Virus record (IMG/VR): IMGVR_UViG_3300033053_000017
Location: 1 to 64,000 of that record
Strand: one strand, 5' to 3'
Length of the DNA stretch: 64,000 nt
Source: a virus
This document shows, one piece after another, positions 1,421 through 49,096 of this stretch; position 1 is the first letter of the stretch, and the number at the start of each line of letters is the position of its first letter. The translations under genes and the position numbers were made by a program. The notes beneath the pieces were generated by a model that did no database searches, had not been told where the DNA came from, and worked only from the letters and a program-made list of their open reading frames with translations.

Positions 1421-3378
1421 TATAATTCCTTCCTCTCTATTTTAAGTTCTTTATCTTTACTTACTACTAAACATACCATTTGTGAATTGGTTGGTAGTAT
1501 ATCGTTGATGCTCTCAGCATTATCTACAAATACAGGAACTTCGATTTTATAATGATCTGATAGAGCAACTATAATATCTAAGCCTGCATTAATTCTCATG
1601 GCTGAGTTAAGACTTTCATATGGAACTCCATTAACCGTAGCTGTGCAGCACTCCTCCAAACCGCCATTTATCAAGCTATTAAACAATTTAAAGTTAACTA
1701 ATTTGAATTTATTGTTTATGCTGCTTTCCATAAGCTCAACTTTAGTTTTAATAAATTCCTCACATAAGAACTCTTGACCCTCTATTTTCGCTATCTGTTC
1801 CCCTAATGCTTTTTCCTGATCCATTAATTCTTGTATTCTAGCTTTTATAGTTTCATTTTGTTCTTTTGCCATAAGTTGCTTTTTAACTTCATCCATCTTG
1901 GCTGTAAATTCTTTTTTCTTATCTCTTAATTCTGAGGCTAAATTATTATTTTCTATTCCTTCAGATCCTTCAGTTATTAAAGCTTTCATGTAATCAATTT
2001 CCTTTAATAAGTTCTGATATTCTTCATTTTTACTTAATACATCTACTGGCTTAAATTCTGATATTGCAATTTCAATTCCTTTAACTTCGGCTGTAAGCTC
2101 CTTTATATCATTTTCTATGTTTCCTATTGCATTGTCTATGCCTTTTATATCCTCTTGAAGTTTTTCAATTGTAGTTTTGCCCTCTTTGCCTTTTTTGCCT
2201 ATGGCTGAAAGTTCTCTTGATTTATTTTGGTTGAAGTTTTCTACTATTTCAGCTTTTTTAGTTTCAACGTCATGTTCTTCGAATGGTCTGTTACATGTAG
2301 GACATATAAACTTAGATTCATCAAATATTAATGCTTTTTTATTAACTTCATGCCATTTTGCCCTTAATTCGTCGTTAGCCTTAGTTACATCGGCTATTGT
2401 ATTTTCACAAATTGTCTTCTTTTCAAATAGGTTATTTAGCTTATCTTCTGCTGATCTCAATTCATATTCTGCCTTTTGAAGCTTGGATTTTAATTCAAAT
2501 AGCGGTTTATCCTTATTGCTGTTAGCTTCGTTTTCTATAGCTTGTAATTTGCTTTGTAAGCCATATAATGCTTTTTGCTTTTCCAAAGTATCTTTAGCGA
2601 CTTTTCCATTGTCTAAAAGCTTATCTTCAATATCTTTTAAGTCATTTTCATAAGTCTGCAGTTGTTGTTCTAAATCTTTCCAATCATATTCATTCAGGGA
2701 GTTATTCAATTCATCTATTCTATAAGGTATTGATTTTATATCGTCATTAAGTTTCTTTCTCCTGGCTGCTGTACTTCTTTTTAATGTGTCAATGTCTTTA
2801 TCCTCTAGTAGCGGTGTCAATGCTCCTAATTCACTGTTATAATTAATTACTCTATCCTTTGTTATATCTCCAACTATGTCTAATATTACATTCCTTCTAT
2901 CCTGCCATTTTAGAACCGTATTAAAGTATAAAGGGTTGCTCACAAGCTTGAATAGTTTTTCATCAATTATGCTATTTATCTTATCCTGGTATTCACTTTT
3001 CTTAACTGGTACCTCATCTATATAATAAAGTGTTTCATGCCCTGTGAATTGCTTTTCTGCTTCTCCTTTTTTCTTAGTCCACTTTTCTTTAAAAGTTTTA
3101 GTTAGCGTTACTGGCTTCTCGTTGACCTCCAATACTGCGGTTACTGTATGTTCTAATCCATGAATAGCTTCGTTATTGCTATCTAGTGTTTTGATCTCAA
3201 AGTCCTTTCTGTCTTGGCTGTCTTTATCGAATAGTAACCAAAAGAATCCATCTGCTATAGTAGTTTTGCCTGTTGCGTTCTCTCCTGAGATAGAAGTTTT
3301 CTCCCCAAATTTTACGTCTAAGTCCTTAACTCCTTTAAAGTTTTTAAGAGTAAGACTTATAAGTTTTATTTTATTCAT
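1420..3378 (-). CDS. Rad50/SbcC-like SMC-family ATPase with zinc hook
   Basis: Walker A GENATGKTT near the N-terminus, a long coiled coil, a central CPTCNRPF (CxxC hook) and a C-terminal Walker B VPVFVDNAE. Confidence 0.8.
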   Translation of the reverse strand: MNKIKLISLTLKNFKGVKDLDVKFGEKTSISGENATGKTTIADGFFWLLFDKDSQDRKDFEIKTLDSNNEAIHGLEHTVTAVLEVNEKPVTLTKTFKEKWTKKKGEAEKQFTGHETLYYIDEVPVKKSEYQDKINSIIDEKLFKLVSNPLYFNTVLKWQDRRNVILDIVGDITKDRVINYNSELGALTPLLEDKDIDTLKRSTAARRKKLNDDIKSIPYRIDELNNSLNEYDWKDLEQQLQTYENDLKDIEDKLLDNGKVAKDTLEKQKALYGLQSKLQAIENEANSNKDKPLFELKSKLQKAEYELRSAEDKLNNLFEKKTICENTIADVTKANDELRAKWHEVNKKALIFDESKFICPTCNRPFEEHDVETKKAEIVENFNQNKSRELSAIGKKGKEGKTTIEKLQEDIKGIDNAIGNIENDIKELTAEVKGIEIAISEFKPVDVLSKNEEYQNLLKEIDYMKALITEGSEGIENNNLASELRDKKKEFTAKMDEVKKQLMAKEQNETIKARIQELMDQEKALGEQIAKIEGQEFLCEEFIKTKVELMESSINNKFKLVNFKLFNSLINGGLEECCTATVNGVPYESLNSAMRINAGLDIIVALSDHYKIEVPVFVDNAESINDILPTNSQMVCLVVSKDKELKIERKEL

Positions 3379-3404
3379 TTTTACATATCCCCTTTCCCTT
3401 TTAT

Positions 3405-7573: not shown

Positions 7574-7644
7574 TTACATATCCCCCTTGATTTATATTAT
7601 CCCCTATATGAACCATAGAGGCACTTTTTAGCTTGTTTTATTAC

Positions 7645-8896: not shown

Positions 8897-8987
8897 TTCC
8901 TTTGAATATTTCTATAAAATCGTAGTATACTAATAGTACATATAAATTTTAATATCCCTTTTGTTTTCCGGTGAAGCAAACACCGGT

Positions 8988-9137
8988 TTATTTTTTTACC
9001 TCCTTTCCGTACTTTTTAAATAAATCCTCTAGGGCTTCATCTACTAGCCTAGCCATAGGTATTCTGGTTTCTTTTGCTAGTTCTTCTATAGCTGTTTTGT
9101 AAGTATCTTCAGTCATTGTGTTGAATTTTATTCTCAT
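8988..9137 (-). CDS. Ribbon-helix-helix (CopG-like) protein upstream of rep
   Basis: 49 aa MRIKFNTMTEDTYKTAIEELAKETRIPMARLVDEALEDLFKKYGKEVKK. GGGAGGTGA SD. Below the track cutoff. Confidence 0.55.
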   Translation of the reverse strand: MRIKFNTMTEDTYKTAIEELAKETRIPMARLVDEALEDLFKKYGKEVKK

Positions 9138-9158
9138 TTATTCACCTCCCTTAAACTT

Positions 9159-9188
9159 ATTATATCATGATAATTCATGATTATGCAA
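9159..9188 (-). promoter_or_regulatory. Promoter/operator of the RHH-rep operon
   Basis: Minus strand TTGCAT, 18 nt, TGATATAAT. The spacer carries direct repeats TCATGAT(A/T)A at 9165-9173 and 9175-9183. Confidence 0.55.
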
Positions 9189-9219
9189 CACCTATTTAGA
9201 AATATTTTCAAATAATTAT

Positions 9220-9339
9220 TTGCAACAAGATATAACTTGATGTACAATATAATTGTTAAGTAATCGTGGCAAATTCGACAAGTCAAATTCCCTAGTTAAT
9301 TAAGAAAGAGGCCTGCTTATATCCAGGGGCTTCTTTTTT
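9220..9339 (+). ncRNA. sRNA cassette A (own promoter and terminator)
   Basis: TTGCAA (9220-9225), 17 nt, TACAAT (9243-9248). The transcript is about 85 nt and ends in a bulged hairpin 9305-9333 plus T6 (9334-9339). No ORF. Confidence 0.45.
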
Positions 9340-9341
9340 AT

Positions 9342-9455
9342 TTGCAATTGTAAATATTTTGCTTTATAATAATCTTGTGTTTATGTTTATATTTGTTTTT
9401 CAATAATCACTAACCCTTTACTCGAAAGAAGTAGCTTGCAGACTGCTTCTTTTTT
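9342..9455 (+). ncRNA. sRNA cassette B (own promoter and terminator)
   Basis: TTGCAA (9342-9347), 17 nt, TATAAT (9365-9370). Hairpin 9427-9450 plus a T-run to 9455. Confidence 0.45.
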
Positions 9456-9457
9456 AT

Positions 9458-9593
9458 TTGCAATTATTTTCCTTTAGGTATATAATGTAAATATATTTAT
9501 ATTTATAAGGCTCATTTATCAATTCTCAACTCATTTGACAAATACATATTCCCTAGCCAAAAGGAAGTCGATAATGCCTAGACTTCCTTTTTT
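9458..9593 (+). ncRNA. sRNA cassette C (own promoter and terminator)
   Basis: TTGCAA (9458-9463), 17 nt, TATAAT (9481-9486). A 9-bp hairpin 9561-9569/9581-9589 plus a T-run to 9593. Confidence 0.45.
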
Positions 9594-9636
9594 ATTTGAA
9601 TTATAATTAAAATATCAAATACATAGAGGTTTGATA

Positions 9637-9696
9637 TGAGGTAACAACATGGAGCTATGCTGTGACATAGTGTGGGTTCAAGTCCTACTATCTCAT
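9637..9696 (+). ncRNA. tRNA-like element lacking a D-arm (acceptor stem, one hairpin, canonical T-arm)
   Basis: The 7-bp acceptor TGAGGTA (9637-9643) pairs with TATCTCA (9689-9695). T-arm is GTGGG-TTCAAGT-CCTAC (9672-9688). Only 28 nt lie between, holding one hairpin (CTATG/CATAG). No encoded CCA. Confidence 0.3.
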
Positions 9697-9704
9697 ACAA
9701 GACA

Positions 9705-9726
9705 ATAGAGGGTTTTCACCCTCTAT
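9705..9726. terminator. Bidirectional terminator hairpin between the sRNA array and mob
   Basis: ATAGAGGG-TTTTCA-CCCTCTAT followed by TTTTATTT on the plus strand. It lies directly after the mob stop on the minus strand. Confidence 0.55.
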
Positions 9727-9727
9727 T

Positions 9728-10681
9728 TTATTTGCTCATAGTTTTATACCTCTTACCGCTAAAACCTCTCTTAAAAGCGTGCTTATTGTCATTCTGAAGT
9801 ACTTCCTCTTTGCCATTCATATTCTTTTTTAATTCCTCTATTATTTTCAATAAAGTTTTATTCTCCTGCTGAAGCTTTTCATTTGTTTCATCCTTCTGCC
9901 TATTCATGTGCTGGAATGATTTTAAAGTCTTATCCATGTAGTTTACTTTCATTTTAAGCATTTCTTCATGGGCCGCTTTAGCCTGTAAAGTTTGCATGTC
10001 TGTTTCTTTAGAGTTATTATTAATCCTTGCATACCAATTGCGAATGCTAACATGTTTTGCTTTGCTGTACCGGCATCCTCTCTGCATTACAGGAAAAACC
10101 TTCTGCATATGGTCTGCGTAACTATCCTGCATATCTCTTAAAGCCTGGTATCCGTTGAAATACTTATAGTTTTGCAAGGTATAGCAGCCTTTTTTCTCAT
10201 TCCATATCCGGGGTATTAAAAGGCAATGCAAATGTAATGTTGTTTCGTCATCATGGGCAAAAACCGCTCTTATATTATCTTTGAAAGTTTCCTGCAGCCA
10301 TTCCAAATTAGTGTTTTTCCATAATTCTATTTCCTGTTTTGACATGCCTTTAAAGAATTGAGGTGTAGCGGTCAATAACAATTCTCTGCCAATCACGCTG
10401 TTTTTATATATCTTTGTGTCTTTTAGATATTCTTTAGTATCTTCGTATAAATCATTGGATCCTAAAAGCTGCTCATTATATTTAAATCTCTCAGGATCCG
10501 CATTAGGTGTTTCCCTTTCTCTTTTCATATGTTTAACAAATCCTTTAATGGATGGAATTGTTTTGAACTTTTTCTCCGATACTCTGAAAATACAATAAAT
10601 GGGCATTTTGTTATTAAAAGCATAAGGCATATCTTTTCTGTATTCGTTGGTTACTTTTTCCTCTTTAAGTCTAGCATCCAT
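9728..10681 (-). CDS. mob: MobV (Mob/Pre family) relaxase
   Basis: HMKRERE matches MobM motif I (HNQRER). AHDDETTLHLHCLLIP matches the HxDE..PHxH motif III (VHNDEQTPHMHLGVVP in pMV158 MobM, recalled from memory). Confidence 0.8.
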   Translation of the reverse strand: MDARLKEEKVTNEYRKDMPYAFNNKMPIYCIFRVSEKKFKTIPSIKGFVKHMKRERETPNADPERFKYNEQLLGSNDLYEDTKEYLKDTKIYKNSVIGRELLLTATPQFFKGMSKQEIELWKNTNLEWLQETFKDNIRAVFAHDDETTLHLHCLLIPRIWNEKKGCYTLQNYKYFNGYQALRDMQDSYADHMQKVFPVMQRGCRYSKAKHVSIRNWYARINNNSKETDMQTLQAKAAHEEMLKMKVNYMDKTLKSFQHMNRQKDETNEKLQQENKTLLKIIEELKKNMNGKEEVLQNDNKHAFKRGFSGKRYKTMSK

Positions 10682-13483: not shown

Positions 13484-13516
13484 TTAAAAACCACCAGTTA
13501 TTAATTTACTGGTGGT
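13484..13516 (-). terminator. Rho-independent terminator of the HTH gene
   Basis: 9-bp stem ACCACCAGT/ACTGGTGGT overlapping the stop, followed by UUUUUAAUUU on the minus strand. Confidence 0.6.
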
Positions 13517-13704
13517 TCATCATAGTTATATTCAATTATTTTATTTTTCTCTTTGTACCACCTATCTACATCAGCCACCACAAAAATTACGCTTCTTCCT
13601 CTCCTCTTGAAAGGCATTCCCTTCTTCATATATCTTTCTATAGTAGTACGACTAACGCTATAATATTCACACAAATCCTTAACAGTACATTCTTTCTTTT
13701 CCAT
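13501..13704 (-). CDS. Excisionase/MerR-type (HTH_17-like) DNA-binding protein
   Basis: 67 aa. CTVKDLCEYYSVSRTTIERYMKKGMPF...VDRW fits the Xis/AlpA-type winged helix. The gene is monocistronic. Confidence 0.65.
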   Translation of the reverse strand: MEKKECTVKDLCEYYSVSRTTIERYMKKGMPFKRRGRSVIFVVADVDRWYKEKNKIIEYNYDEPPVN

Positions 13705-13780
13705 CTTATCGCCCCCTAATACAATATATGCAACATCTTATAAATAATTGCAAAAATAATTTTAAAAAAGTATGCAACAT

Positions 13781-13809
13781 TTAGCAATGTGATACATAGT
13801 ATGTAATAT
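13781..13809 (+). promoter_or_regulatory. Candidate promoter of the plus-strand cassette
   Basis: TTAGCA, 17 nt, TAATAT. A 10-mer TATGCAACAT is repeated at 13727-13736 and 13771-13780. Confidence 0.4.
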
Positions 13810-13841
13810 AAAGATTTAAAAATTAAAAAGGGGATATGTAA

Positions 13842-14078
13842 ATGAAAACATTCAGATTCAATAGAGAAGGGCTAAATCAATGTATGGCATATACAGATTA
13901 TAAAGAAATAGCTAAAGAGATGCTTGAAAACAACCCTCAGATACTCCCAATGGTATTAATAGGTGTATTAGGTCTGTCAATATTTTTAATAAGTCCTGGT
14001 GCATCACAAGTCGCATATAAGGCGTCCTTAGATGATACAACATCTATTATCGCATTTAAATTTTTAGGAGGTTTTTAA
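13842..14078 (+). CDS. Small membrane protein (78 aa)
   Basis: GGGGA SD and a central TM segment ILPMVLIGVLGLSIFLISPG. First gene of the only plus-strand operon. Confidence 0.55.
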   Translation: MKTFRFNREGLNQCMAYTDYKEIAKEMLENNPQILPMVLIGVLGLSIFLISPGASQVAYKASLDDTTSIIAFKFLGGF

Positions 14079-14081
14079 TAT

Positions 14082-14297
14082 ATGGATAATTTAATAAGCG
14101 GAATGATATTAGTTGAGAAAACATACGGAGATTTGCACTTGCTTTGTGCTACTCCTTATGGCTGGAAAGTGGTTGATGCAAATGGGAGTTATATCGAATT
14201 TGATCCTAGCAATTATTCAAAGGCTTATATTCCTGAAAGTTACGAAGATCCTTGGACACCATTAGCAGGCACGATAAAAGGAGGAGAAAGTATCTAA
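14082..14297 (+). CDS. Hypothetical protein (71 aa)
   Basis: Begins 3 nt after the previous stop, with an AGGAGG SD. Confidence 0.55.
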   Translation: MDNLISGMILVEKTYGDLHLLCATPYGWKVVDANGSYIEFDPSNYSKAYIPESYEDPWTPLAGTIKGGESI

Positions 14298-14497
14298 TGG
14301 AGATAACAAAATACTTGCAATTCCAAGGGAAGGAACTAGAGATTGATTCTTTAGAAAAAGAAGTTAAAGGCATATGGAAGAAACAAGGCAAGCTATTAAA
14401 AGATATAAAGGCATTGAAGTTGTATATAAAGGTTGAGGAAGGTATGTGTTACTATATAATAAATGATACTTATAATGGGAGTTTTTCAATAGAGTAG
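14297..14497 (+). CDS. Hypothetical protein (66 aa; internal start of track ORF 14252..14497)
   Basis: ATG at 14297 preceded by AGGAGG and overlapping the upstream stop (TAATG). Confidence 0.5.
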   Translation: MEITKYLQFQGKELEIDSLEKEVKGIWKKQGKLLKDIKALKLYIKVEEGMCYYIINDTYNGSFSIE

Positions 14498-14513
14498 GTT
14501 TTGAGCCTACTCT
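14491..14513. terminator. Terminator hairpin between convergent genes
   Basis: AGAGTAGG-loop-CCTACTCT followed by ATGTTATTTT on the plus strand. It lies 4 nt from the minus-strand holin stop. Confidence 0.55.
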
Positions 14514-14516
14514 ATG

Positions 14517-17340: not shown

Positions 17341-20300
17341 TTAATTGTCATAAGGATTAGCTTTTCCTTTTTTCTTTGTAGGTGCTTTTCCTTTCTTTAA
17401 TACAGCAGCTTTATTAGATAAGCTTTGAAGTAATTGGCTTTTCTTTTCTAGTGATATATTGGCTTTAGAGATTAAATCCGCTTGCTGTCTTATATAAGTA
17501 GCTTTGCTGGAAGTATTATATTTTATATGGTCTTCAATGTTAGACTTCAGTTCAGTTGGAGAAACTATGCTACTGTCACCATTCATAAGTTTATTTGCCT
17601 CTGCTGCTGTATCTATTATTTGCTGTCTTAAAGATTTAACTTTTTCTGTTTCTCCGTTTTGCATAGCTTCAAATACTTGTTTTGATAAATCCGCTATAGT
17701 TTTATTGGCTTTAGTAAATTCACTGGACACATTTTCCTCATGCGTAACAACTTTAGAATCTATGTTTTCCGAGAAGTTTTTATCCGCTGCTGCTGTTTTG
17801 GATTTTTGCATGTTGTCGTAGAAGTCCTGTACATCCTGGTTATTATATAACGGATCTGCTGTAAATCTTGTGGTAACAGGAGAAAGTATATCATCTAATT
17901 TGCTGTCGCCTTTTGTGTTTGACAAAGTTGTCATTGGAAGTACAAACTGTCCTATAACGCCAGTGTAGGATTTAATAACATAGTCTACCTGTTTAGGTGA
18001 TAAGCCTAGCTTTCCAAATAGCTTTCCTATTTCACTGGTCTTTTCATCATACTGTAACTCCGCTGAACGTCCTTCTATTGACTGGGGAACAATTGCCCTT
18101 CCAGCAAAATCCTTATTAGAAGGCAAATTATAAATAAGAGGAGAAAATATATTATTTTCAATAGGGTCAGTTGGTGAAAAGTTTGTTGCTATTGTATTGC
18201 CAAATCCTTTAAAAGCTTCATCATCGCCATTAGACTTCCTCCAAATACGTTCAAATAACGATCCGAATATTACACCATATTCTCTTGACTTAGGTATCTT
18301 TATGAATTTATCGCCATAAGGAATTAAATAATAAGTATCTTTAGTTCTATTGTCTAATTTATCATAGTTTGGATTATCGGCATTTACTATATTCTGAAGT
18401 ACACTTAATGATGTAACACCTATTAATCCCTTAGCTACTGTTGGAATAGCCTTTTTGCCTTTAAACTGTCTAACTAATTTGTCCAAGCCTTGAATACTGG
18501 CGTTTAGGTAAGGAACCCAAGCATCAACTTTCTTTGTAACATCTCCACCTCTGCTGAAGTTCGTTGTGACTTCGTTTGAGTCAAATAAAGCTTTTTCTAT
18601 ATCGCCAGTCTTAGCTAAAGTCCTTTTAAATTCTGCAAGCCTTGGCGCGCTTTCAAGGGCATTGTTAAAGGCTTCAACCTTGTTCCCTATTCTACTTAAT
18701 AAGCCTTCTTTTCTTAGTTGTGCTGCTGACTTATAAGTCTTTTCGCTGTCAAAGAAGTTAGAACCTCCACCGCCTACGCCTTTATATTTTTGGTAACTTT
18801 CGGCATTAGTTAGAACATCTTTAAATGCACTCCCTAAATTGCCTACAGCTTTTAAAGGATTATTTTCCTTAGAGTTTATCATATACGTTGGAATATCTCT
18901 TGATACATTGGATATTGCAAATAGTGGATTTTTAGTTGTTATCAATGCTTTAAATAAATTCGTAGCTGCTTTTGCTTTCCTCGTTATATCTCCTAAGTCA
19001 CTTTTGTTAACAGCCTTTAAAGCATCTAGGAAAGGTTTATTATTAATCTGAAGATTAACACGTTCTCCATTTTCTAGCACTGTAACAATGTTGTCGTGAT
19101 TATGATTAATCTCAACATCTTTAGGAATTATTTCAGCAAAACCTTGTAATTCTGTAGGATGCTGTCTTATTGAATTTAAAGCCTCTTGACCTACTTCATT
19201 ATATTTTGCAGTTCTTACAGTACGATTAACTAAATTCATAATGTTTTCCACTGGATTTTTTATATCTCTATCTGAACCTTGGGCTCTGCTTAATGGTGTA
19301 GATTGGTCTACAAATCCTTTACCGTTAGTCTTTTCTATCCCACCTTCTAATTCTGTAAAGCTTCTATTAGTTGGTATATAGTTAGGATATTTCTTTTTCA
19401 AGCTGTTCCATAAATCATCCGATATTAAACCGCTCTTATGGCCCCATTCTTCCATGAAAGTTTTTAACCACTTAGTAACATTGTCTCCGGCTCTTTTTAA
19501 ATCAGGATTCAATTTTTCAAACTCGTTTACTATATTCTGTGATGATTCACTGTTATGTTTTGGATAAACAGGCTTGTTTTCTGCATATCTTTGAACATTA
19601 TGTCTATGCAGCATATATTCCCAGAACTCATTTTCTTTTCCTTTAGGAACTTGATTGACTAATTCTCTTAATGAATTACCTATCTTTTTGCCTTTCATAT
19701 CTACTAATGCACTTGTTAGTATATGATCCACTACACCGCCTACATTTTTAGAGTTAGTAGATTTTATATATGCTTTATCTCCGCTTACCTTGGAAAAATC
19801 CGCAGTAGGTTTATTGGTATCGACTATCCTAGTATAGAATTTATTCCAAGAATTTTTAAAACTAAACTTACTATCGTTTTTGCTGGATACTATTTTAACG
19901 TCATTTTCAGGCATATTAGGTCTTACTACGTCTTTAAGCTGTTTAAGTCTTTGCTCTGCTGCAAATAGCTGTAGATTAATTGATCTTACTTTTTTATTAT
20001 CTTTAGCTTTTACAGCTTCTTTTACAGCAGTTTTTAAATTGCTTATATGTTCTTTTAAAGTATTTGCATCATCTATTTTATTAAAATCTATTGAAGCATC
20101 ATTGGTCTTAACATCGTTAACTTTAACATCATTGCTTTCCATCCTGGTCCTATTCAAGTCGTTAAAAGTCTTTTTGCTAATAGTAATATCTTTTCCGCTC
20201 TTATGAGTAGCTATGACATTCTTACCATTGATAGATTTTACAGTAACCTCGCCTATATTCTTAAGATTATATTTTTCGTTCTCTATTATAGGCTTTTTAG

Positions 20301-23300
20301 GATTCATTAAGCTAGGCATTTTTTTACTAGAATATTTAGTGCTTTGTGGTACTACTTTAGTTGTTTCATGTATTACTTCTTTATATCCGCTTACTTTATT
20401 TCCTTTTGGCTTTTCACCTAGTTCTTTTGCTTCGTAGCCCTTCCATACAGGTGTAGATTCTTTCTTTACAGTTTTATAAGGTTGCTCTTTGTATCCGCTA
20501 AATACAGGCTTTGTTTCGTGGCTTACTTTTTCCACTGTCTCATATTTAGGATTATTTGTTGCAACTCTATCAGTTGTCTTTTTAATAACTGATTGTTCCC
20601 TGTATCTGTTTTCCCTAAATTTTTCTTCAGTCTCATTTACTCTAACGCCCTTGCCAACATCTTTGCCCATCCATTTAGTGTTATTTACTTTGTCAGGTCT
20701 TATGCCCATGTCTTTACGCAAGCTTACTGTAGATTCTTTAGTGTTAATTAAAGCATCATTTATATGGCCTTTTCTAACTAAGTTAGACAAGCTCTCCGTT
20801 GCTCCTTCACCGTTAGCATTTACAAATACGGAAGTTGATCCAAATTCTTTCATTCTGCCCCTGAGATAATCTGTTGTTGCTTTCTCATTCTCTAGTATCT
20901 TACTAGGGATTTCTTGTATTGCCCTTACTTTTAATTTACTGTCCATATAAAATACTGCACTTTGATTGCTGTCAAGCTGTAGTTCTTTACTTGTAATAGC
21001 TAGTTGTTGAGGATTCTTTATTGTTTCACCTAATAGTGGATGATCTAAGCTAGGTTTTAATATCTTGTCTTCTCCCATGCCTAAGTCCAATATATCACTT
21101 TCAAGCCCTTTGCCTATTGTTGCATACTTTTCACTGTTAATAACTACATGTCCCTTAAAGCCTTTAACATTATCTCTATATGCTTTAGTAGCTTCCAAGT
21201 CAGGCTTTGAAGGCGTAGGCTCTCCTGAAGGATGATTATGTAATAAGTAATATCCATCTGCTTTCATTCTTTTCATTCTCTGATTCATTTCGAAAAATGC
21301 AGCAGGCTTATTCTTTAAAAATGCAACAGTTGAACCTGGTATTCTTGAAGTCATAGCTTCATGCCCTACTATCTCATTTCCACGAGTATAAATAATACGG
21401 AAAGTCTCATATTGAGGGTTTCGGAATATTTGGCCCATTACAGCTACGTCTTTTACATCATTTACTTTTCTTCCTCTAAGTTCGACGTATCCTTTGTGTG
21501 CAAGTTCTTTTGAGAAGGAAACACCGACTGTCTTGATGCCATTTCCACTAGTTGTTCCTCCGGTGCTTCGTACTCTATCTTCAAGTTGTCTTGTGCTTTC
21601 AATTGCTTCACTTGCAAGGTTCATTGCCTCCTTATCTTTATTTTTGTATAAATGTTGAATTTTACCTAGTAAGTCCGTTTTGTCTTTTTGTTGACTGCTT
21701 TTTTCTCCATCCTCTATGAAAGACTGTTTTTCTTCTTCTAATATATTTTTACTATTTAAATCAAATTTAGAGTTGTTGCCTATAGATGATTTAATTTGAT
21801 TAGGAGAAAAAACAGCATAAGTTTCAGACTTTAATTCCTTCCACACTAAACCATCAATGTCATTATCTTTTAATGCTTTTACAAAATTATTATTGTCAAA
21901 GTACATGTAAGCATCCCATTTACCGTTCCTGATTTGGTCTGCAACTTCTTCCTCGTAATTAGGATGCTCGTTAAGTAAGCCCTCTTTCTCTAATAATTTT
22001 CGTCTTTGTTCAACTTCACTCTTGTAATAATCATTAATAACAGATGTAGCTTTTTCTCTAGTTATCCCAGAATTTACTAATATATGTCCCGCTGTCACCT
22101 GGTCATTTAATGACATGCTCCTTAGATCTAATGGGTTTTCAAGTTTTAAATAAACAGGTGTAATGTTAGCACCCTTCTTTAACTTGTTTTGTTTTCTACC
22201 ACCCATAGCAAATGTTTCTGCATGTTCAGCATCTTTAGCAAACCAAAAAGCATTACGTCTGCCGCCAAAAGTGCTTATTCCTTTTTTATCTTTTCCAACA
22301 AACGTTGAACCATGATAAACCACTAAAGGATTACCCTTTTCATCAGTAACCTTGCTGTCACCAAACCATTTTTTAAATTCAGGTGTTTCCACTTTAGCAC
22401 CTTCAAAATTATTACTATTAACATTATTATATGCTTCTGCCTTTTCTTTGACTTGATTGCTTTCAGGCTTATCAATAACAACCAATCTAGTATTTACACC
22501 TGTGGATCTGTCACTTTCTTTAAAACTACCTTCAGGAAGCTTTTCAGATGTACCGCCTAATCCATCTAGCCATTCTCTAAATTCTACACTCTTTTTATCG
22601 TTGGCGAAAAACGGATGTTCACTCATTATAGCTACTATTCTTCCACCTGGTTTAAGCTGTTCATAAGCGTGTTGAACGTGGATAACATCTTGATTCTTTT
22701 CAAAAGGTGGATTCATTATTATTTTGTCATACTGCCCTTTATGTTCCAAGAAGTCTTGACTTACTACATTATGCCCTTTTGCTTTTAAAATTTCTGACAG
22801 TGAATTATTATATTCTCCGACTTCTAAGTTATTCTTTGGATGCTCTGCTTTTATCATATCTGCAATATGTCCGCTTCCAGCTGAAGGTTCCAATATACTT
22901 TCACCATCTTTAATATTAGCTTCTTCCAGCATCCTATCGACTACCTTTTTAGGTGTAGGGAAGTAGCTTTCAAACTTCTTTCCTATAATGCCTCTTTCAA
23001 GTTCTTTAACTTTCTTGGCCTGTACTTCTTCAGGAGATAACTTAAAATCACCTTTAGCTTTTTGAAACTCCCTTAACGCAGCTCTAAGCATAGTTGTGTT
23101 TTTGATGCCCATAGTTTGAAGCCTTTTATAATCTACTAAATCATAATCTCTACTAAAATCTTTACCTGATCTTTTGAGCTTGTCGTAAAGTTCAATAATA
23201 TCCTCTGCTATGTTTTTAGTGTCAATATAACGTTCCTCACCTTTAACCTTATTTTGTACTACAGCTTTATCTATTTTCTGTCTTAATCTAGCAGTATTAG

Positions 23301-26300
23301 GTATACTTACAGTTTCTTTCGTTAGCTGCTTTAATGTTTCGTCGTAAGTTTTAGTTAGTGGATATTCTGCTGTATCTATAGAATTAAATTCAACTTCAGG
23401 TTTATCTTTCAATTCTTGTTCATATCGCTTCTTAGTTTCATATGTTCCACTGTTACCAGGATATTTTTCATCAATCATTTTTGAAACAAGCTTATTTTTA
23501 GTTGTCCTTAATACGCCTTCTAAGGTTTCAATATGAGTTTTTGCAGTAACACCGTCTAAATGTTTTGCTTCTCCGCTTTCAATTAAATCTGCTATGTTTC
23601 TAATGATTTTCTGCTGTTTCTTTAGTGCCTCTCCTTCTGCTTCAGCGTTAGCTGCCATACTTGCCCTTCTAGCTGTGTTGGTTTGTCTATCTGCAAATTT
23701 ATTATCTATAGTTGATTGCATGTTATCAGCTACAGTTCTAAGTTTGTTGGCAACTTCTTTTTTTCTGCTTGGCTTAACTTCTTCTTTTGCAGTTTCTACT
23801 ACATCGCCTTTTTTAATAGAGTTAAGTTTTTCAGTAGGATCAAAGTAAAAATTAAATCCTCTTGTAAATCTTGAATAGCCAGCACCGCCCAAGTCCTTCA
23901 TTTGTTTATTTAAAGTCTTAAAGTCTCCACTCTTATCCTTAAATTTAACTACCCATAAATCTCTTTTATCCCTGGTATCTTGCGTTTTAGATATATCATA
24001 TTCACTATTAGATTCTAGGTTTGTTACTGTCTTAACTCCTTTTTCTTTCTCTTTAGCTTTAATATCTAAGGACTTTAATTCTTCGTACTGTCTTTGTTCC
24101 TCTGTGCTTAATTTTTTCACTCTTTTAGCTAGTTCAAAATCTTCTAATGTGGTAGGATTTTTAATGCTTTCAATTTTAGCCTTTCTTTCTTCTGCAGCTT
24201 TATTGTAAGAACTCTTTTTCTTTTCTAGCATTGAATCAAGTTTTTCCTGTGTAAGTTTTTCTAATGAGGATTTAATTTTGCCTTTCATCTGGTCCTCTAA
24301 GCGTTCCTTACCGCCATAACTTAAACCGCTTAATGTATCAGTATCAGCTATATCATAGTAAGTTCTATTTAATTGGTTATTGTAAATATGTTCAACCTTA
24401 TCTTGCTTCTTAGTATAGTCTTTAGCTCTCCATCCTATCATCTTGTCAAGTTCAGCGTTTTTAAGTTTAGATAGTTCGGATTTTATAACATCTTCATTGT
24501 TCATAATATACTCAGCATGGTTTTTAACTTCTTCTGCAGTAAGTGGTTCACCTTTTCTAATTTTGCTATTTGTTTTAGTTATAGTAGTTAAGGGGTTTTC
24601 TTGTTTAGCTTCTTCTTTTTTTGTTAACTCAGGATAATCTTTTGCGACTTCTTCAGGAACCTGTCTTCCTTCCTTTAGTGCATTTCTAACTGATTGTTCA
24701 TGTTCATATTGAAGTAGCTCCTTAGTTGCCCCACGAGTTTTACCAACATATTCAGCCTTTGTTTTTAAGTAAGCTTCTTCTTGTGCTTTTCTTGAATTAT
24801 CATATTTTTGTTTCAATTCTTGTTCATGTTCTTTCTTTAGCTGCTCTCCTTCTTGTTTTTTAATTTCTTTAACTTTATCTTCTGTTTGTTTAGATAGTTC
24901 TTTTGCTGTAGGTTTTCCCTTGCTTTTTTCCATTTCACTTTTAAGCTTTTCAGCATCTTCTTTAATTCCAGGATACTCTTTCAAAACTTCTTCAGGCACA
25001 TTTTTGCCTTCGATTAAAGCACTTTTAATTGAATTTTTATGCTGAATTTCTCCTAGTGGGTTCCACGATTCTTCTGTCCACCCTTTTTCTGATCTAACTT
25101 TTTTCATTTCTGCCTTGGTCAATTGCCAGTGTTCCTGTGGCTTTTCTTCCTTAACTTCAGTATTTAATTTCTGTCCGCTACCTTCAATATCATTCTTTTT
25201 AGATACGTAATCTTTATTAGCTTCAATGTCATTGCCCATCATATCTTTATATCCGTTACTTAGCCTGCTATCTATAACAAGTTCTATCTTCTTACTCTTA
25301 GCGTTATTTTCTTTCCCATCATCTGATATAAGTTTATTTAATCCTTCTTCTATGTCTTTATATCCCATTTTATATTGATCTCTTAAATAAGCTATATCAC
25401 CACTTGTTACCCTCTGCTGGCCCCATGTTGTGCCATCTTCTCTTGTGCCTTTTTCACCTTTAGAAGTGTTTTTCAAATCATCCAGCAAGGATTTTGCATC
25501 ATCTTGAATATGGTGTTTTAGTTCAGGATGTAAATACTGATAAGATTGAACCTTTCTATTTCCTACATTTGTGTTGTCTCTTTCATCTATAGGAAGTTGT
25601 TCTTTCGCTGTAGGCTGTGATTTTATGCTTTCATATTGTTCGCCATTCTTTTTAGCTAGTACATAATCACCTTCAGGTCTTTGTATTTCAACAGTACCAT
25701 CATTATTTATCTTGTGTATAGTCCCTGCATCCAGTTTATTATTATGGTTTAATAATACTTCGTCATTTACTTTATGTGTTATATTCTCCATAGAAGCGTT
25801 TTGAGCAGCATTATTTTCTACAGGTATATTTGTATCACTAAGTGCAACTTCATTTGTCTGTGGCTGTTCTGTGGTCTTAACATTATCTTCTACTGTATTT
25901 GCTTTTCTATTATTTTTCATTTCTTGTAATTTTTTAAATTCAGCACTCATATTATTTAATGTTGATTGATTTTCAGGTGTTATTTGTCCATTATTATCGG
26001 CTAGTATTTTTTTAGTTCTTTCAGTTAGATCATTTATTCTTTTATCTACAAATTCACTAGAAAGTTTAGGCTGTCTATAACTTCTTACTACTGGAATTTG
26101 TTCAGTACCTTCTGCATAATTTGTAACGTCTTTATATTGTGGTAGTCCTGTTTCCTGCTTTTGATAGTCAACATTTCTTTCTTTTTTAACACTTACCAAA
26201 GGCACTTGCTCATTTGCAGTAACAGGAACATTTTCTTTATAGGTCATTACACTTGGAACTTGTTCTTTTGCTGTAGGTTCTCTATAGGTTCTTACATAAG

Positions 26301-27849
26301 GTATTTGTTCTGTGGTCGTTTCTTTTACTGGATTAAATGTTGTGCTGTCTACTCCTGCAACCTGTCTTAGCCTTTGCCTATCACCTATTGCTCTTATATC
26401 TGTTTTAGCTGTTTCAGCATCTTTAACCAGCTGTTCTAAGTCAATTCCTAACTCTGGCTTTATTCTTGCCATTTCTTCAGGAGTAAGTTTATTAGTTCCA
26501 AAATGATTTCCTATAGCATCCATAGCATCTTGCAATTTCTGCTGTGCTTGTTCTGGAGCTGTATTTTTAACTGTATATGTGGTTCCTCCTGGTTTGCCTA
26601 ATCTTGTTTTTAATTCATTGTTTATAGCATTATTGCTTATATTATCAGGATTTAAGCCCATGTTGCTCATGGAGTTCTTAGTTTCATCATTATATTTTTT
26701 AGCCGCTAATAGTTCAGGAGCAGTATATGAGGACAAGTCATTACTTGTATTAACGCTATCTATAGTTGATTTAGGTATTGTCTGTGCTGTACTGTCAAAG
26801 GTTGTTTTGTCTATATCATGTATATTACCAGCTTCATCCTGTACTCTTACATTTTGCCCATCATCATTTAGAACTTTAACTTTTCCTTTGCCTTGTAAAT
26901 AGTGAGTGAAGGCATCTCCTACAAGCTTACCGCCTGCGCCCCACAACGCCCCTTGTTCAAAACCTTCTTTTACTGCTTCGCCTACATCTTGACCATTTAC
27001 AGCACTATTTATTCCTTCATTTAATCCAAACTCTGCACCTGTTTTTAAGGATTTCGTAATATAATCAGGTGTGTTTTTAATTGCATATCCTGTGCCTTGT
27101 GAAAGTTTATTAAGGGCATAATTGCCCCATTTATTTTCAACATTGTTTGCTAAATTAGATATATTTCCTTCTACTCTATTGCCTAAATTAGTAGCTTTAT
27201 TGGTAAGATCGTATTTACTAGCTAATTTATTTAAAGCATTTTCCGTAGGTTGTCCGATAACTTTATTCATGGCATTACCTATGGAGAAGTTAGCACCAGG
27301 AAGATTTGCACTGAACCCAATACCGCCCCCAATGAAGTCTGCTACTGAATCCGCTAAGTCACTTCCTGTACTGTATTCTTTATCTTTTAAAGCATTGCCG
27401 CCTGTCATAACATCCGCTGCAGATTGCCCAGCCCTAGCTATCCCACTAGTTATAGGATTACTACTGATTAAATCATCAAACTTAGTATTTAACCAGTCCT
27501 CACCTTTTCTAACAGTTCCCCAAAAGCCGGTATCATCATCACTACTATTGCTAGAACTACTAGAAGGAGTTATGCCATCAAAAGAAAATGAAGTATCGCT
27601 ATCATTACTATTATTGTTATTAGAACTATCTACAAACATATCAGCATATTTTGGATCTATTTGACTATCCGAACTATTATTACTACTTGATATATCCGAA
27701 CTTGCACTAGAGTTATCACTTGTTTCATCTTTTTGGTGGACTAAAGGATCATTTAGAAAACTAGGCAATTTACTTGATTGACTTTGAGATTGACTCCCGC
27801 TTGAAAAGCCATCAAGATAACTAGGTAATTTCTTTTTCTTTTTAGCCAT
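17341..27849 (-). CDS. Giant polyvalent protein (3502 aa) with N6-adenine MTase, PARP/DT-like ART and RadC/JAB domains
   Basis: MTase motif I ILEPSAGSGH and motif IV NPPF (aa 1713-1716, nt 22702-22713). VVYHGS...NAFWFAKD around aa 1846 (about nt 21900-22360). YYLLHNHPSGEPTPSKPD at aa 2204 (about nt 21130-21520). The N-terminus is Ser-rich and low-complexity. There are repeated ALxEG(K/R)xVPEEVxK(E/D)YP modules. Confidence 0.9.
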   Translation of the reverse strand: MAKKKKKLPSYLDGFSSGSQSQSQSSKLPSFLNDPLVHQKDETSDNSSASSDISSSNNSSDSQIDPKYADMFVDSSNNNNSNDSDTSFSFDGITPSSSSSNSSDDDTGFWGTVRKGEDWLNTKFDDLISSNPITSGIARAGQSAADVMTGGNALKDKEYSTGSDLADSVADFIGGGIGFSANLPGANFSIGNAMNKVIGQPTENALNKLASKYDLTNKATNLGNRVEGNISNLANNVENKWGNYALNKLSQGTGYAIKNTPDYITKSLKTGAEFGLNEGINSAVNGQDVGEAVKEGFEQGALWGAGGKLVGDAFTHYLQGKGKVKVLNDDGQNVRVQDEAGNIHDIDKTTFDSTAQTIPKSTIDSVNTSNDLSSYTAPELLAAKKYNDETKNSMSNMGLNPDNISNNAINNELKTRLGKPGGTTYTVKNTAPEQAQQKLQDAMDAIGNHFGTNKLTPEEMARIKPELGIDLEQLVKDAETAKTDIRAIGDRQRLRQVAGVDSTTFNPVKETTTEQIPYVRTYREPTAKEQVPSVMTYKENVPVTANEQVPLVSVKKERNVDYQKQETGLPQYKDVTNYAEGTEQIPVVRSYRQPKLSSEFVDKRINDLTERTKKILADNNGQITPENQSTLNNMSAEFKKLQEMKNNRKANTVEDNVKTTEQPQTNEVALSDTNIPVENNAAQNASMENITHKVNDEVLLNHNNKLDAGTIHKINNDGTVEIQRPEGDYVLAKKNGEQYESIKSQPTAKEQLPIDERDNTNVGNRKVQSYQYLHPELKHHIQDDAKSLLDDLKNTSKGEKGTREDGTTWGQQRVTSGDIAYLRDQYKMGYKDIEEGLNKLISDDGKENNAKSKKIELVIDSRLSNGYKDMMGNDIEANKDYVSKKNDIEGSGQKLNTEVKEEKPQEHWQLTKAEMKKVRSEKGWTEESWNPLGEIQHKNSIKSALIEGKNVPEEVLKEYPGIKEDAEKLKSEMEKSKGKPTAKELSKQTEDKVKEIKKQEGEQLKKEHEQELKQKYDNSRKAQEEAYLKTKAEYVGKTRGATKELLQYEHEQSVRNALKEGRQVPEEVAKDYPELTKKEEAKQENPLTTITKTNSKIRKGEPLTAEEVKNHAEYIMNNEDVIKSELSKLKNAELDKMIGWRAKDYTKKQDKVEHIYNNQLNRTYYDIADTDTLSGLSYGGKERLEDQMKGKIKSSLEKLTQEKLDSMLEKKKSSYNKAAEERKAKIESIKNPTTLEDFELAKRVKKLSTEEQRQYEELKSLDIKAKEKEKGVKTVTNLESNSEYDISKTQDTRDKRDLWVVKFKDKSGDFKTLNKQMKDLGGAGYSRFTRGFNFYFDPTEKLNSIKKGDVVETAKEEVKPSRKKEVANKLRTVADNMQSTIDNKFADRQTNTARRASMAANAEAEGEALKKQQKIIRNIADLIESGEAKHLDGVTAKTHIETLEGVLRTTKNKLVSKMIDEKYPGNSGTYETKKRYEQELKDKPEVEFNSIDTAEYPLTKTYDETLKQLTKETVSIPNTARLRQKIDKAVVQNKVKGEERYIDTKNIAEDIIELYDKLKRSGKDFSRDYDLVDYKRLQTMGIKNTTMLRAALREFQKAKGDFKLSPEEVQAKKVKELERGIIGKKFESYFPTPKKVVDRMLEEANIKDGESILEPSAGSGHIADMIKAEHPKNNLEVGEYNNSLSEILKAKGHNVVSQDFLEHKGQYDKIIMNPPFEKNQDVIHVQHAYEQLKPGGRIVAIMSEHPFFANDKKSVEFREWLDGLGGTSEKLPEGSFKESDRSTGVNTRLVVIDKPESNQVKEKAEAYNNVNSNNFEGAKVETPEFKKWFGDSKVTDEKGNPLVVYHGSTFVGKDKKGISTFGGRRNAFWFAKDAEHAETFAMGGRKQNKLKKGANITPVYLKLENPLDLRSMSLNDQVTAGHILVNSGITREKATSVINDYYKSEVEQRRKLLEKEGLLNEHPNYEEEVADQIRNGKWDAYMYFDNNNFVKALKDNDIDGLVWKELKSETYAVFSPNQIKSSIGNNSKFDLNSKNILEEEKQSFIEDGEKSSQQKDKTDLLGKIQHLYKNKDKEAMNLASEAIESTRQLEDRVRSTGGTTSGNGIKTVGVSFSKELAHKGYVELRGRKVNDVKDVAVMGQIFRNPQYETFRIIYTRGNEIVGHEAMTSRIPGSTVAFLKNKPAAFFEMNQRMKRMKADGYYLLHNHPSGEPTPSKPDLEATKAYRDNVKGFKGHVVINSEKYATIGKGLESDILDLGMGEDKILKPSLDHPLLGETIKNPQQLAITSKELQLDSNQSAVFYMDSKLKVRAIQEIPSKILENEKATTDYLRGRMKEFGSTSVFVNANGEGATESLSNLVRKGHINDALINTKESTVSLRKDMGIRPDKVNNTKWMGKDVGKGVRVNETEEKFRENRYREQSVIKKTTDRVATNNPKYETVEKVSHETKPVFSGYKEQPYKTVKKESTPVWKGYEAKELGEKPKGNKVSGYKEVIHETTKVVPQSTKYSSKKMPSLMNPKKPIIENEKYNLKNIGEVTVKSINGKNVIATHKSGKDITISKKTFNDLNRTRMESNDVKVNDVKTNDASIDFNKIDDANTLKEHISNLKTAVKEAVKAKDNKKVRSINLQLFAAEQRLKQLKDVVRPNMPENDVKIVSSKNDSKFSFKNSWNKFYTRIVDTNKPTADFSKVSGDKAYIKSTNSKNVGGVVDHILTSALVDMKGKKIGNSLRELVNQVPKGKENEFWEYMLHRHNVQRYAENKPVYPKHNSESSQNIVNEFEKLNPDLKRAGDNVTKWLKTFMEEWGHKSGLISDDLWNSLKKKYPNYIPTNRSFTELEGGIEKTNGKGFVDQSTPLSRAQGSDRDIKNPVENIMNLVNRTVRTAKYNEVGQEALNSIRQHPTELQGFAEIIPKDVEINHNHDNIVTVLENGERVNLQINNKPFLDALKAVNKSDLGDITRKAKAATNLFKALITTKNPLFAISNVSRDIPTYMINSKENNPLKAVGNLGSAFKDVLTNAESYQKYKGVGGGGSNFFDSEKTYKSAAQLRKEGLLSRIGNKVEAFNNALESAPRLAEFKRTLAKTGDIEKALFDSNEVTTNFSRGGDVTKKVDAWVPYLNASIQGLDKLVRQFKGKKAIPTVAKGLIGVTSLSVLQNIVNADNPNYDKLDNRTKDTYYLIPYGDKFIKIPKSREYGVIFGSLFERIWRKSNGDDEAFKGFGNTIATNFSPTDPIENNIFSPLIYNLPSNKDFAGRAIVPQSIEGRSAELQYDEKTSEIGKLFGKLGLSPKQVDYVIKSYTGVIGQFVLPMTTLSNTKGDSKLDDILSPVTTRFTADPLYNNQDVQDFYDNMQKSKTAAADKNFSENIDSKVVTHEENVSSEFTKANKTIADLSKQVFEAMQNGETEKVKSLRQQIIDTAAEANKLMNGDSSIVSPTELKSNIEDHIKYNTSSKATYIRQQADLISKANISLEKKSQLLQSLSNKAAVLKKGKAPTKKKGKANPYDN

Positions 27850-46807: not shown

Positions 46808-46930
46808 GTTATCACCTTATTCTTAAAATATTGAAAGGAGGGATCTTCTTTTGTACACTAATTAATTTTTACGCTTTTGTTATCTATATTAAAAGATAAT
46901 AAGCTTTATATATTAAAAGCCAAATCTTTT

Positions 46931-47140
46931 TTAAGATTCGGCCATTAGTCCAGCTGCTTTTAATTTTGTAAGTAGTGCGTTAAAATCTGTTTTTAGTCCT
47001 GCTACGTCTGAAGCTGTGCTTGCTGCTTGTACTGGCATTTGTGATCCTACTCCTGCCTGAAGTTCATCTCCAAGTTTTACATCTCTTGCTACTGGACACA
47101 TATTATTTAATTTAGCCTTTTGTGCATCTGATATTGCCAT
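46931..47140 (-). CDS. Small Ala/Gly-rich protein between terS and terL
   Basis: 69 aa ending LKTDFNALLTKLKAAGLMAES. Locally less AT-rich than its surroundings. Confidence 0.5.
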   Translation of the reverse strand: MAISDAQKAKLNNMCPVARDVKLGDELQAGVGSQMPVQAASTASDVAGLKTDFNALLTKLKAAGLMAES

Positions 47141-47326
47141 AACTTATCACTCCTTTGTAATGGTATTATGTGCAGCGGTTCAGTGATTATGCCATAATAA
47201 CCGCTATGCGAATATGTTTTATTAAAGGTATAAATGTATTGCCTACCCTTGAAAACTCTCTTAGAATTGCTCTATGAAAGTATACCTTTTTAGTCAGGTT
47301 CGCTAAATCTCTATTTAACGATTATC

Positions 47327-47761
47327 CTAGAAAAAGTCCTCCAGTTTCTTAACTGATAGTTCTCCTTTTATTTCCATTTTATCTGTAAACATTCCTAGAT
47401 GCTTTCCAATTAATTCCGTTGCCTTGTTGGCTCCTGCTGGATCAAATTTAAATTCCCCAGTTTCATTGCCATCTTTGTCTATAACTGGTGTTGCCTGTAC
47501 ACATCTATCTGATATCAGCTTTAGTCTTTCAAGTACCCATTGTGCATCTAACTTAACTTCTTGGGCTCTTTCTGTCTGCATTTCATTGATTCTAGTGTAT
47601 ATCCTAGGGTTTTTCAGTAGCTTATGTGATTCTACTCCAGCCACTTTATCACTTTTAGCAGAATAGCCAGCATCCTTATAAGCTCTTGTAGCATTAAAGT
47701 CTTTACAGTATTCCAAACAGAATAGTTCCTGCTTTTCAGTTAGCTTATCACCTTTAGCCAT
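47327..47761 (-). CDS. terS: Terminase small subunit
   Basis: LTEKQELFCLEYCKDFNATRAYKDAGYSAKS...KLLKNPRI matches the Terminase_2-type N-terminal HTH. Confidence 0.8.
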   Translation of the reverse strand: MAKGDKLTEKQELFCLEYCKDFNATRAYKDAGYSAKSDKVAGVESHKLLKNPRIYTRINEMQTERAQEVKLDAQWVLERLKLISDRCVQATPVIDKDGNETGEFKFDPAGANKATELIGKHLGMFTDKMEIKGELSVKKLEDFF

Positions 47762-48030
47762 TAATACTACACCTCCCTTGACAACATTAGTTTCAAAATA
47801 TTTCTATCTACTTTCAATTTACCACATCTTGTATACTGTTGCAAATACTTTTTTAAAAACAAAACTTTTTATTGACAAGATTTAAATGTTCTGTTACCCT
47901 TATTAATTTAATATATACAGTAATATATAGGCGTTAGCCTATATATTACGTTAATAAAAGAATACTACGTATTAATCGCCTAAGGGCGATTTAATATAAG
48001 TGTTAATATAAATATATAGTTTATATATAA

Positions 48031-48055
48031 ATAAAAAGAAGCCCTCTTAGGCTTC
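48031..48055 (-). terminator. Terminator closing the early region
   Basis: GAAGCC-loop-GGCUUC overlapping the stop of 48047..48247, followed by UUUUUAUUUAU. Confidence 0.6.
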
Positions 48056-48355: not shown

Positions 48356-48356
48356 G

Positions 48357-48680: not shown

Positions 48681-48735
48681 AAATCATATCCCCTTTTGCA
48701 TTTTACTAGGTTGTTTGCCTCAACCTTATGTATTT

Positions 48736-49045: not shown

Positions 49046-49096
49046 CTTATTACCTCCTTATATTTAAAAAAGCGGCTTTTATACCGCTATGCTTTA

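Follow-up and report, generated by a model that had tools for sequence, protein, structure and literature searches.

The DNA analysed here, positions 1 to 64,000 of the IMG/VR virus record IMGVR_UViG_3300033053_000017 (the window), carries nearly all of its genes on the minus strand and encodes both phage proteins (terminase, portal, major head and tail) and plasmid proteins (a DnaD-like Rep, a ribbon-helix-helix (RHH) protein, a Mob_Pre relaxase and a type IV coupling protein (T4CP)), so that phage-plasmid is a fair description of the element. Plasmids of Clostridium perfringens, C. botulinum and Sarcina carry relatives of its Rep; to our knowledge, clostridial phage-plasmids have been little studied and next to nothing is known of their RNA regulators. 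Our subject is a gap of 590 nt (9138-9727) between the stop of the relaxase gene (9728) and the start of the RHH gene (9137), in which an earlier reading of the letters alone (the sequence-only reading) had noticed an array of promoter-RNA-terminator cassettes. The RHH-rep operon and the relaxase gene both lie on the minus strand and the array between them lies on the plus strand, divergent from the RHH-rep promoter and convergent with mob, as that reading had stated.

Four successive plus-strand units, A to D, occupy 9220-9732 (Table 1), each consisting of a sigma-70-like promoter, 80-120 nt without a credible open reading frame (ORF), and a hairpin followed by a T-run; the first three (9220-9593) are organised just as the sequence-only reading had described them. 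Of their promoters, which it had called near-consensus, the -35 box TTGCAA fits the consensus at just 4 of 6 positions; nor does the window, which is AT-rich, have any excess of promoter-like sites over shuffled sequence (103 vs 93, 73 vs 72 and 81 vs 85). The fourth unit, previously dismissed as promoter-poor, has a promoter equal in score to those of units B and C. The non-random signal is the phased succession of terminator-promoter junctions, not promoter-like sites per se. Promoters B and C begin 2-3 nt downstream of the T-run of the previous hairpin, the repeated boundary string reported before proves to be exact over 21 nt (GCTTCTTTTTTATTTGCAATT, at 9329-9349 and 9445-9465), and the string TTTATTTGCAA recurs at a spacing of 116-138 nt, at a terminator-promoter junction every time. 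In addition, the promoter region of unit C is 73% identical to that of unit B over 63 nt (repeat family D1).

Table 1. Position and properties of the array units, of neighbouring candidate regulatory elements and of the predicted target boxes in the window (P values of the boxes are post hoc; see text).
Feature	Position	Strand	Details
Unit A promoter, TTGCAA-17-TACAAT	9220-9248	+	9/12 consensus matches; back-to-back with the RHH promoter
Unit A predicted RNA, ~85 nt	9255-9339	+	C-rich motif AUUCCCUAG at 9287-9295; terminator hairpin ~9302-9339
Unit B promoter, TTGCAA-17-TATAAT	9342-9370	+	10/12 matches; begins 2 nt past the unit A T-run
Unit B predicted RNA, ~79 nt	9377-9455	+	C-rich motif UAACCCUUUAC at 9411-9421; terminator 9424-9453
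Unit C promoter, TTGCAA-17-TATAAT	9458-9486	+	10/12 matches
Unit C predicted RNA, ~101 nt	9493-9593	+	Terminator arms 9559-9569 / 9581-9591; fold z = -3.3
Unit C putative seed, UACAUAUUCCCU	9543-9554	+	Almost wholly unpaired in the minimum-free-energy fold
Unit D promoter, TAGACT-17-TATAAT	9579-9607	+	10/12 matches
Unit D predicted RNA, ~119 nt	9614-9732	+	Fold z = -4.5
Imperfect palindrome, TATTTAGAAATATTTTCAAATA	9193-9214	.	Between the -35 boxes of the RHH and unit A promoters; candidate RHH operator
Countertranscript candidate, ~59 nt	8938-8996	+	Promoter TTGAAT-18-TATACT at 8902-8931; AUAUCCCUUUUG; hairpin terminator 8968-8986 plus T-run
Box of the SbcC-like gene (3378 to 1420)	3381-3392	-	Predicted duplex with unit C -20.8 kcal/mol, P=0.001
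Box of the 181-aa gene (7573 to 7028, phrog_13202)	7574-7585	-	Predicted duplex with unit C -19.3 kcal/mol, P=0.008
Box of the 78-aa gene (13842-14078)	13830-13841	+	Predicted duplex with unit C -17.4 kcal/mol, P=0.002

In fold predictions the hairpin stems measure ~13 bp in unit A, 11 bp in unit B and 11 bp in unit C, and each is followed by TTTTTTATTT; the stem of A includes G.U pairs, and the terminators of A and C, with loops of 12 and 11 nt, were missed by a consensus scan. The U-tracts that follow the hairpins on the plus strand (six U, then AUUU) contrast with poor ones on the minus strand (UUUCGAG, UUUUGG and GUCUUG), which points to the hairpins being primarily plus-strand terminators. 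That the stems differ in a pair-preserving way had been taken as a sign of functional paralogues; any set of terminators pairs, and the argument carries little weight. Two other identities for the repeats were considered and rejected. Iterons or a replication origin would need close, helically phased repeats of ~17-22 bp, here replaced by the wide junction spacing. Type III toxin-antitoxin RNAs of the ToxI type are made of short, almost identical tandem repeats that precede a toxin gene in the same orientation, whereas the units of the array are 114-138 nt long, dissimilar, equipped with terminators of their own and convergent with the next gene.

The bodies of the units are unequally related. 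In pairwise tests the bodies of A and C were similar (p<0.002), as were the promoters of B and C (p<0.002), and the body of B was similar to neither A nor C. The 3' core common to A and C amounts to ~22 nt, both carry ATTCCCTAG (9287-9295 and 9548-9556), as had been noticed, and in a repeat analysis unit D shared only CAAATACATA with the other units. A, C and, weakly, B have a common design, in which an AU-rich 5' part leads to a C-rich motif that is exposed and lies 5-13 nt ahead of an intrinsic terminator, the T-run of which abuts the -35 box of the next unit. By comparison with Rfam, the array RNAs have no homology to any described small RNA (sRNA) family, none reaching its gathering threshold anywhere in the window, LhrC and RsaE included; a match to SQ1002 of C. 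difficile, a chromosomal sRNA next to feoA2, was rejected at 21.5 bits against a threshold of 128. The earlier statement that the array overlaps no gene holds for the flanking RHH and relaxase genes, neither of which is overlapped by any unit, making a trans role the natural reading; it does not hold for the mechanically called minus-strand ORFs at 9134-9286 (50 aa) and 9578-9700 (40 aa). The 50-aa ORF has a poor start context and matched no Pfam or PHROG family.

The search for conservation in homologous elements that the sequence-only reading had called for recovered the 3' module, consisting of the C-rich motif and the terminator, in five loci (L001-L004 and L155), and the full array in none. 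Four syntenic metagenomic loci, L001-L004, each carry a single cassette with a TATAAT box (TG-extended in L002 and L004) on the strand opposite the relaxase gene. This cassette adjoins the RHH gene in L001, L002 and L004; the contig of L003 stops before any RHH gene is visible. In it, a 5' part that varies is followed by a C-rich motif (AUAUCCCC, CUCCCCU or CCCAUCCCCC) and then a terminator, and the C-rich module is kept across elements with relaxases only 57-72% identical. Every fold leaves the motif unpaired or places it in a hairpin loop, 8/8 cassettes have it 5-13 nt upstream of the terminator, and in the family the terminator helix is 90% paired, 5 of its 11 pairs showing compensatory changes. 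A covariance model, R1, was built from window units A and C together with L001-L004 and searched in 137 kb. It scored 55 bits on unit A and 62 bits on unit C, both training members, and its best matches outside the training set were L155 (28 bits) and unit B (23.2 bits, E ~0.02); the earlier claim of three paralogues thus stands for A and C and is weak for B. In L155 the module is the 3' untranslated region (3'UTR) of a 40-aa ORF divergent from RHH-rep, and ends in CTCTTTTTTTTATTTGCAATG, close to the junction string of the window. More distant relatives of the relaxase and Rep were discarded as not syntenic. A search with the RHH protein returned only the query itself, exact-pattern scans for the junction string and the family core gave unrelated chance matches only, and a DNA similarity search of phage and plasmid collections found no relevant match.

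Candidate targets emerged from the start regions of the element's own genes. Ribosome-binding sites in the window are rich in G, GGGGA lying no more than 20 nt from the start in 12/84 genes. With up to 1 mismatch allowed, the window has just three copies of a 12-mer box, GGGGATATGTAA, all of them immediately ahead of a start codon; in unrelated loci the box is ~30 times rarer (2 matches in 1.4 Mb). The genes concerned encode an SbcC-like protein, a 181-aa protein downstream of rep and a 78-aa protein (Table 1). The UACAUAUUCCCU of unit C is complementary to this box over 12 contiguous bp, one of them G.U. Measured against flank-shuffled seeds, the duplexes gave P values of 0.001-0.008 per site and P<0.001 for the sum of the three sites. 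In an unbiased scan, we also compared 95 start regions with the 28 nt that precede each terminator; for unit C, the three box genes came out as the top 3 of the 95. Exact k-mer complementarity was limited to 12-13-mers of borderline significance. Among the relatives, the L001 homologue has a core, UUACAUAUCCCC, perfectly complementary to GGGGATATGTAA, and in L155 (~6000) and L156 the box is found at the start of a gene downstream of rep. The box itself holds an ATG-TAA start-stop pair just ahead of the true ATG. The 78-aa gene, which carries the box, is the first in a small plus-strand operon (region 13501-14515) encoding proteins of 78, 71 and 81 aa, the last a DUF6465 protein, which ends in a terminator at 14489-14515 and is divergent from an HTH_17 gene (13501-13704, minus strand).

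The promoter of the RHH gene, read directly on the minus strand as TTGCAT-18-TATAAT with a TG extension and its -10 box at 9164-9159, stands back-to-back with that of unit A. The imperfect palindrome between the two (Table 1), which has similar strings in L001 and L004, is a candidate RHH operator common to both promoters, raising the possibility that unit A is co-regulated with the replication module. A 30-nt inverted repeat, 70% complementary, links 8905-8934 with 9177-9206; its arms, AATATTTCTA near the promoter of the countertranscript candidate discussed below and TAGAAATATT in the candidate operator, may be RHH binding sites.

Taken together, we tentatively favour a reading, to which we give a little less than an even chance, in which the gap holds four independent genes for small non-coding RNAs, opposite in strand to the backbone genes, of which A, C and, weakly, B would be C-rich anti-Shine-Dalgarno sRNAs of the Firmicute type. 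Their exposed motif next to the terminator would pair with Shine-Dalgarno regions. In unit C, UACAUAUUCCCU would bind GGGGAUAUGUAA, that is, the ribosome-binding site and spacer of the three box genes, and so repress translation of the SbcC-like, 181-aa and 78-aa genes, with unit A tied to the replication module through the palindromic candidate operator. That the units are transcribed, that the RNAs are stable and act in trans, and the direction of regulation are what we infer from the observed sequence anatomy, predicted folds, module conservation in relatives and complementarity. If the reading is right, one ~100-nt RNA and one 12-nt box would couple the replication/mobilization region to three genes in a small, easily tested circuit.

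Several results weigh against this interpretation. Relatives near enough to share the array were not found, the closest relaxase being 72% identical, and when the relaxase, Rep and a 75-aa protein encoded by three of the relatives were used to scan viral, genome and metagenome contigs, no loci came back. The per-site and summed P values were calculated post hoc, after the three genes had been seen, and in the unbiased scan the best single match of unit C reached only P=0.04. Units A and B had no start-region target above chance in these comparisons, a scan of full-length duplexes against all start regions did no better than shuffles, and the homologous RNAs have no local targets within their own short loci. 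Finally, on the backbone strand the complement of the C-rich motif resembles a ribosome-binding site with a hairpin immediately ahead of it. The seeds may therefore descend from an antisense copy of such a site, an ancestry that would account for part of the complementarity between seed and box.

The layout had also been described as one without precedent. In Listeria monocytogenes, however, four of the LhrC1-5 sRNAs (LhrC1-4) form one multicopy locus of ~100-nt sRNAs, each with its own promoter, which block translation by binding the Shine-Dalgarno region through UCCC motifs that are unpaired or lie in loops; such motifs are characteristic of low-GC sRNAs that bind Shine-Dalgarno sequences (PMC4132741). 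Like LhrC, the array comprises several predicted short RNAs, each with its own promoter and an exposed C-rich motif. The LhrC copies, though, are near-identical, chromosomal and of proven expression, whereas the array lies on a phage-plasmid, A and C share only their short 3' core, B is barely alignable and no Rfam family matches. The resemblance to RsaE/RoxS and other low-GC UCCC sRNAs (summarised in PMC4132741) lies in the exposed C-rich seed by an intrinsic terminator and in an anti-Shine-Dalgarno action, which is here a prediction; there is no homology in sequence or structure, and the proposed targets are the element's own genes with a common 12-nt start-site box. A base-pairing sRNA is known from another phage-plasmid, the temperate Vibrio phage VP882, whose VpdS acts on phage or host mRNAs and is described as a single gene in a Gram-negative, Hfq-dependent system (review PMC12197685), where the window has a tandem array on a clostridial-type element. 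Thus, the array is predicted to represent an sRNA kind already well known, matched by no described family and located on a phage-plasmid.

A different account of the same gap starts from its content in relatives, where the place of the array is taken by small cargo: a 75-aa ORF in L001-L003, a tRNA-Ser in L003, a 51-aa ORF in L004 and, in L155, the 40-aa ORF. The gap could on this account be a landing zone for small transcription units (morons), and the array decaying debris made of duplicated junctions and what is left of vanished genes, such as a relic ribosome-binding site on the backbone strand, the G-rich complement of the C-rich motif, and perhaps the 75-aa gene. The exact duplication of the 21-nt junction would fit, as would the resemblance of the opposite strand of the seeds to the start-site box. 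Unit B, moreover, begins with ATGTTT, as does the 75-aa gene, and tblastn of the 75-aa protein, with the gap alone searched, gave SFDKYIF at 9531-9551 (E=0.04). We rejected a derivation of B and C from that gene, for which these seven residues are the only tblastn hint and an nhmmer profile of the 75-aa cassette matches nothing in the gap. Decay would also not have kept four promoters and four stems of 10-13 bp all intact, the eight cassettes have no backbone-strand ORF conserved across them, and the C-rich module persists in spite of the divergence of the relaxases. Relic cassettes are thus a possible, though rather unlikely, explanation. Should the predicted regulation fail, the region would still be a conserved landing zone for small independent transcription units by the RHH gene.

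The cargo genes have features of their own. The 75-aa ORF (MF..NFK...KEKYY.Y.EYEKI.FDKYTFLIT) lies at 1940-2167 in L001, 6866-7093 in L002 and 1765-1992 in L003, always on the minus strand of the locus, has its own promoter and terminator, and takes the place of units B and C in these three relatives; no Pfam match was found for it or for the other small ORFs of the relatives. The 40-aa ORF of L155 (3327-3449, minus strand), which has the family module as its 3'UTR, is Cys-rich, and downstream of it (2863-2967, minus strand) a 34-aa ORF, hydrophobic at its N-terminus and basic at its C-terminus, resembles a small membrane protein or toxin. In L003 an intact tRNA-Ser(GCT) at 2212-2299 (minus strand) lies directly upstream of the C-rich/terminator module and has the same T-loop, GGTTCAAGTCC, as unit D.

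The position of the array exactly between two co-oriented operons suggests another function, namely insulation, in which hairpins and convergent promoters would mainly block read-through from T4CP-mob into RHH-rep and the RNAs would be by-products. A-tracts before the stems could allow the hairpins to work both ways, and both strands yielded a call for the hairpin of unit D, which adjoins the mob stop codon. The poor minus-strand U-tracts argue against this, a single terminator would be enough, and neither the conserved C-rich motif nor the 12-bp match to the box would be explained. We consider it unlikely that insulation is the main role of the array.

Control of copy number or incompatibility, which the sequence-only reading had listed among its candidates, would liken the units to RNAII of pMV158 or RNAIII of Inc18. 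The array adjoins the RHH (CopG-like) and rep module, and unit A may share an operator with the RHH promoter. Units A-D nevertheless lie upstream of the RHH promoter without overlapping the RHH-rep transcript, they have no complementarity to the rep leader, and their best predicted targets do not include the start regions of RHH and rep. A better candidate for a copy-control RNA is the separate unit at 8938-8996, which sits between the RHH stop and the rep start, antisense to the intercistronic leader of RHH-rep, where it lies opposite a Shine-Dalgarno-like AAAAGGGAUAUU that has a 3-codon mini-ORF after it. In pMV158 (CopG/RNAII) and in the immI region of P22 (Arc/sar), a short antisense RNA that has a promoter and a terminator of its own comes after a gene for a small RHH repressor, and the 8938-8996 unit matches this layout, which makes copy control by A-D very unlikely. 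Units A-D, by contrast, stand outside the RHH-rep operon and are not antisense to it, resembling the countertranscript candidate in design only (AU-rich body, AUAUCCC-type motif, terminator).

This resemblance allows a broader, and in our view improbable, proposal, in which the array and the in-operon countertranscript would be one evolving family of antisense copies of one common ribosome-binding box, each joined to a terminator. Duplicated out of their cis setting, these would now form a post-transcriptional trans regulon tied via the RHH operator to the plasmid-maintenance state and controlling a gene of nuclease/recombination function, another linked to rep and a third, on the plus strand, beside an HTH regulator. 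If true, it would be a case of trans-acting sRNAs born by duplication of an antisense control RNA.

In unit D, 9635-9643 can pair with 9689-9697 in an acceptor-like helix of 9 bp, 9672-9688 gives a T-arm-like hairpin, GUGGG-UUCAAGU-CCUAC, and a terminator with a 10-bp stem lies at 9704-9727. These two elements of a tRNA are the only ones present, there being no proper D arm and a putative anticodon loop of 6 nt, and the tRNA-like element announced earlier is not called as a tRNA either by ARAGORN, which found none, or by Rfam RF00005 (18.5 bits, the gathering score being 29). The unit is unlikely to serve as an attachment site, because genome matches to an 18-mer from the T-arm and acceptor were ordinary tRNAs only, none of them attachment-site-like, and because there is no integrase among the window ORFs scanned. 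The same DNA can be read directly in another way, as GAGGT (9638-9642, a good Shine-Dalgarno sequence), 6 nt and a 19-codon ORF (9649-9708, MELCCDIVWVQVLLSHTRQ), the stop of which lies at the foot of the unit D terminator and the frame of which overlaps the T-arm. The 5' part of the unit (ATGAGGTA, AACAACAT) is also found upstream of the mob terminator in L002 and L003.

This second reading of unit D raises the question of small-protein genes, which could be represented by its 19-aa peptide, preceded as it is by GAGGT, a 6-nt spacer and ATG, or by a backbone-strand ORF running from 9286 to 9134 upstream of RHH. Frames of this second kind follow the complement of the C-rich motif in unit A of the window (50 codons, ending in an ATGA overlap with the RHH start), in L001 (ATG and 34 codons) and in L004 (33 codons), the latter two at the same place as the first. 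We read them as not coding, since the three are mutually dissimilar and match no family, such frames are absent from L002, L003, L155 and units B and C, a promoter would not fit in, and the frame of the window contains the RHH promoter. Its TTG start is, in addition, too close (1-2 nt) to the Shine-Dalgarno-like motif, and the peptide of unit D is missing from relatives that have the same flanking sequence. We regard small-protein genes as highly improbable at either position.

Least credible of all are decoys for host defence, whether as mimics of CRISPR repeats, for which the solitary promoter-repeat-terminator units known as Racrs on phages and plasmids offer a precedent in short units on mobile elements (PMC10651486) but Rfam CRISPR-DR models found no such mimicry (best scores of 19.5 bits against a gathering score of 44 and 16.8 against 37, both on the minus and hence wrong strand), or as a unit D tRNA mimic absorbing or replacing the target of a tRNA-cleaving defence, which the T-arm-like GGUUCAAGUCC, the acceptor-like helix and the real tRNA-Ser at this place in a relative would favour and the failed tRNA calls and incomplete arms oppose.

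Elsewhere in the window, a minus-strand gene at 17341-27849 encodes a polyvalent protein of 3502 aa with LPD38, ART-PolyVal, methyltransferase and RadC-like domains; polyvalent proteins are typical of conjugative elements and of phages that deliver proteins into recipient cells. Also on the minus strand, 46900-49700 holds a series of single-gene units, each with its own promoter-like site and strong terminator, and one of these terminators (48035-48058) has a GAAGCC...GGCTTC stem resembling that of unit A.

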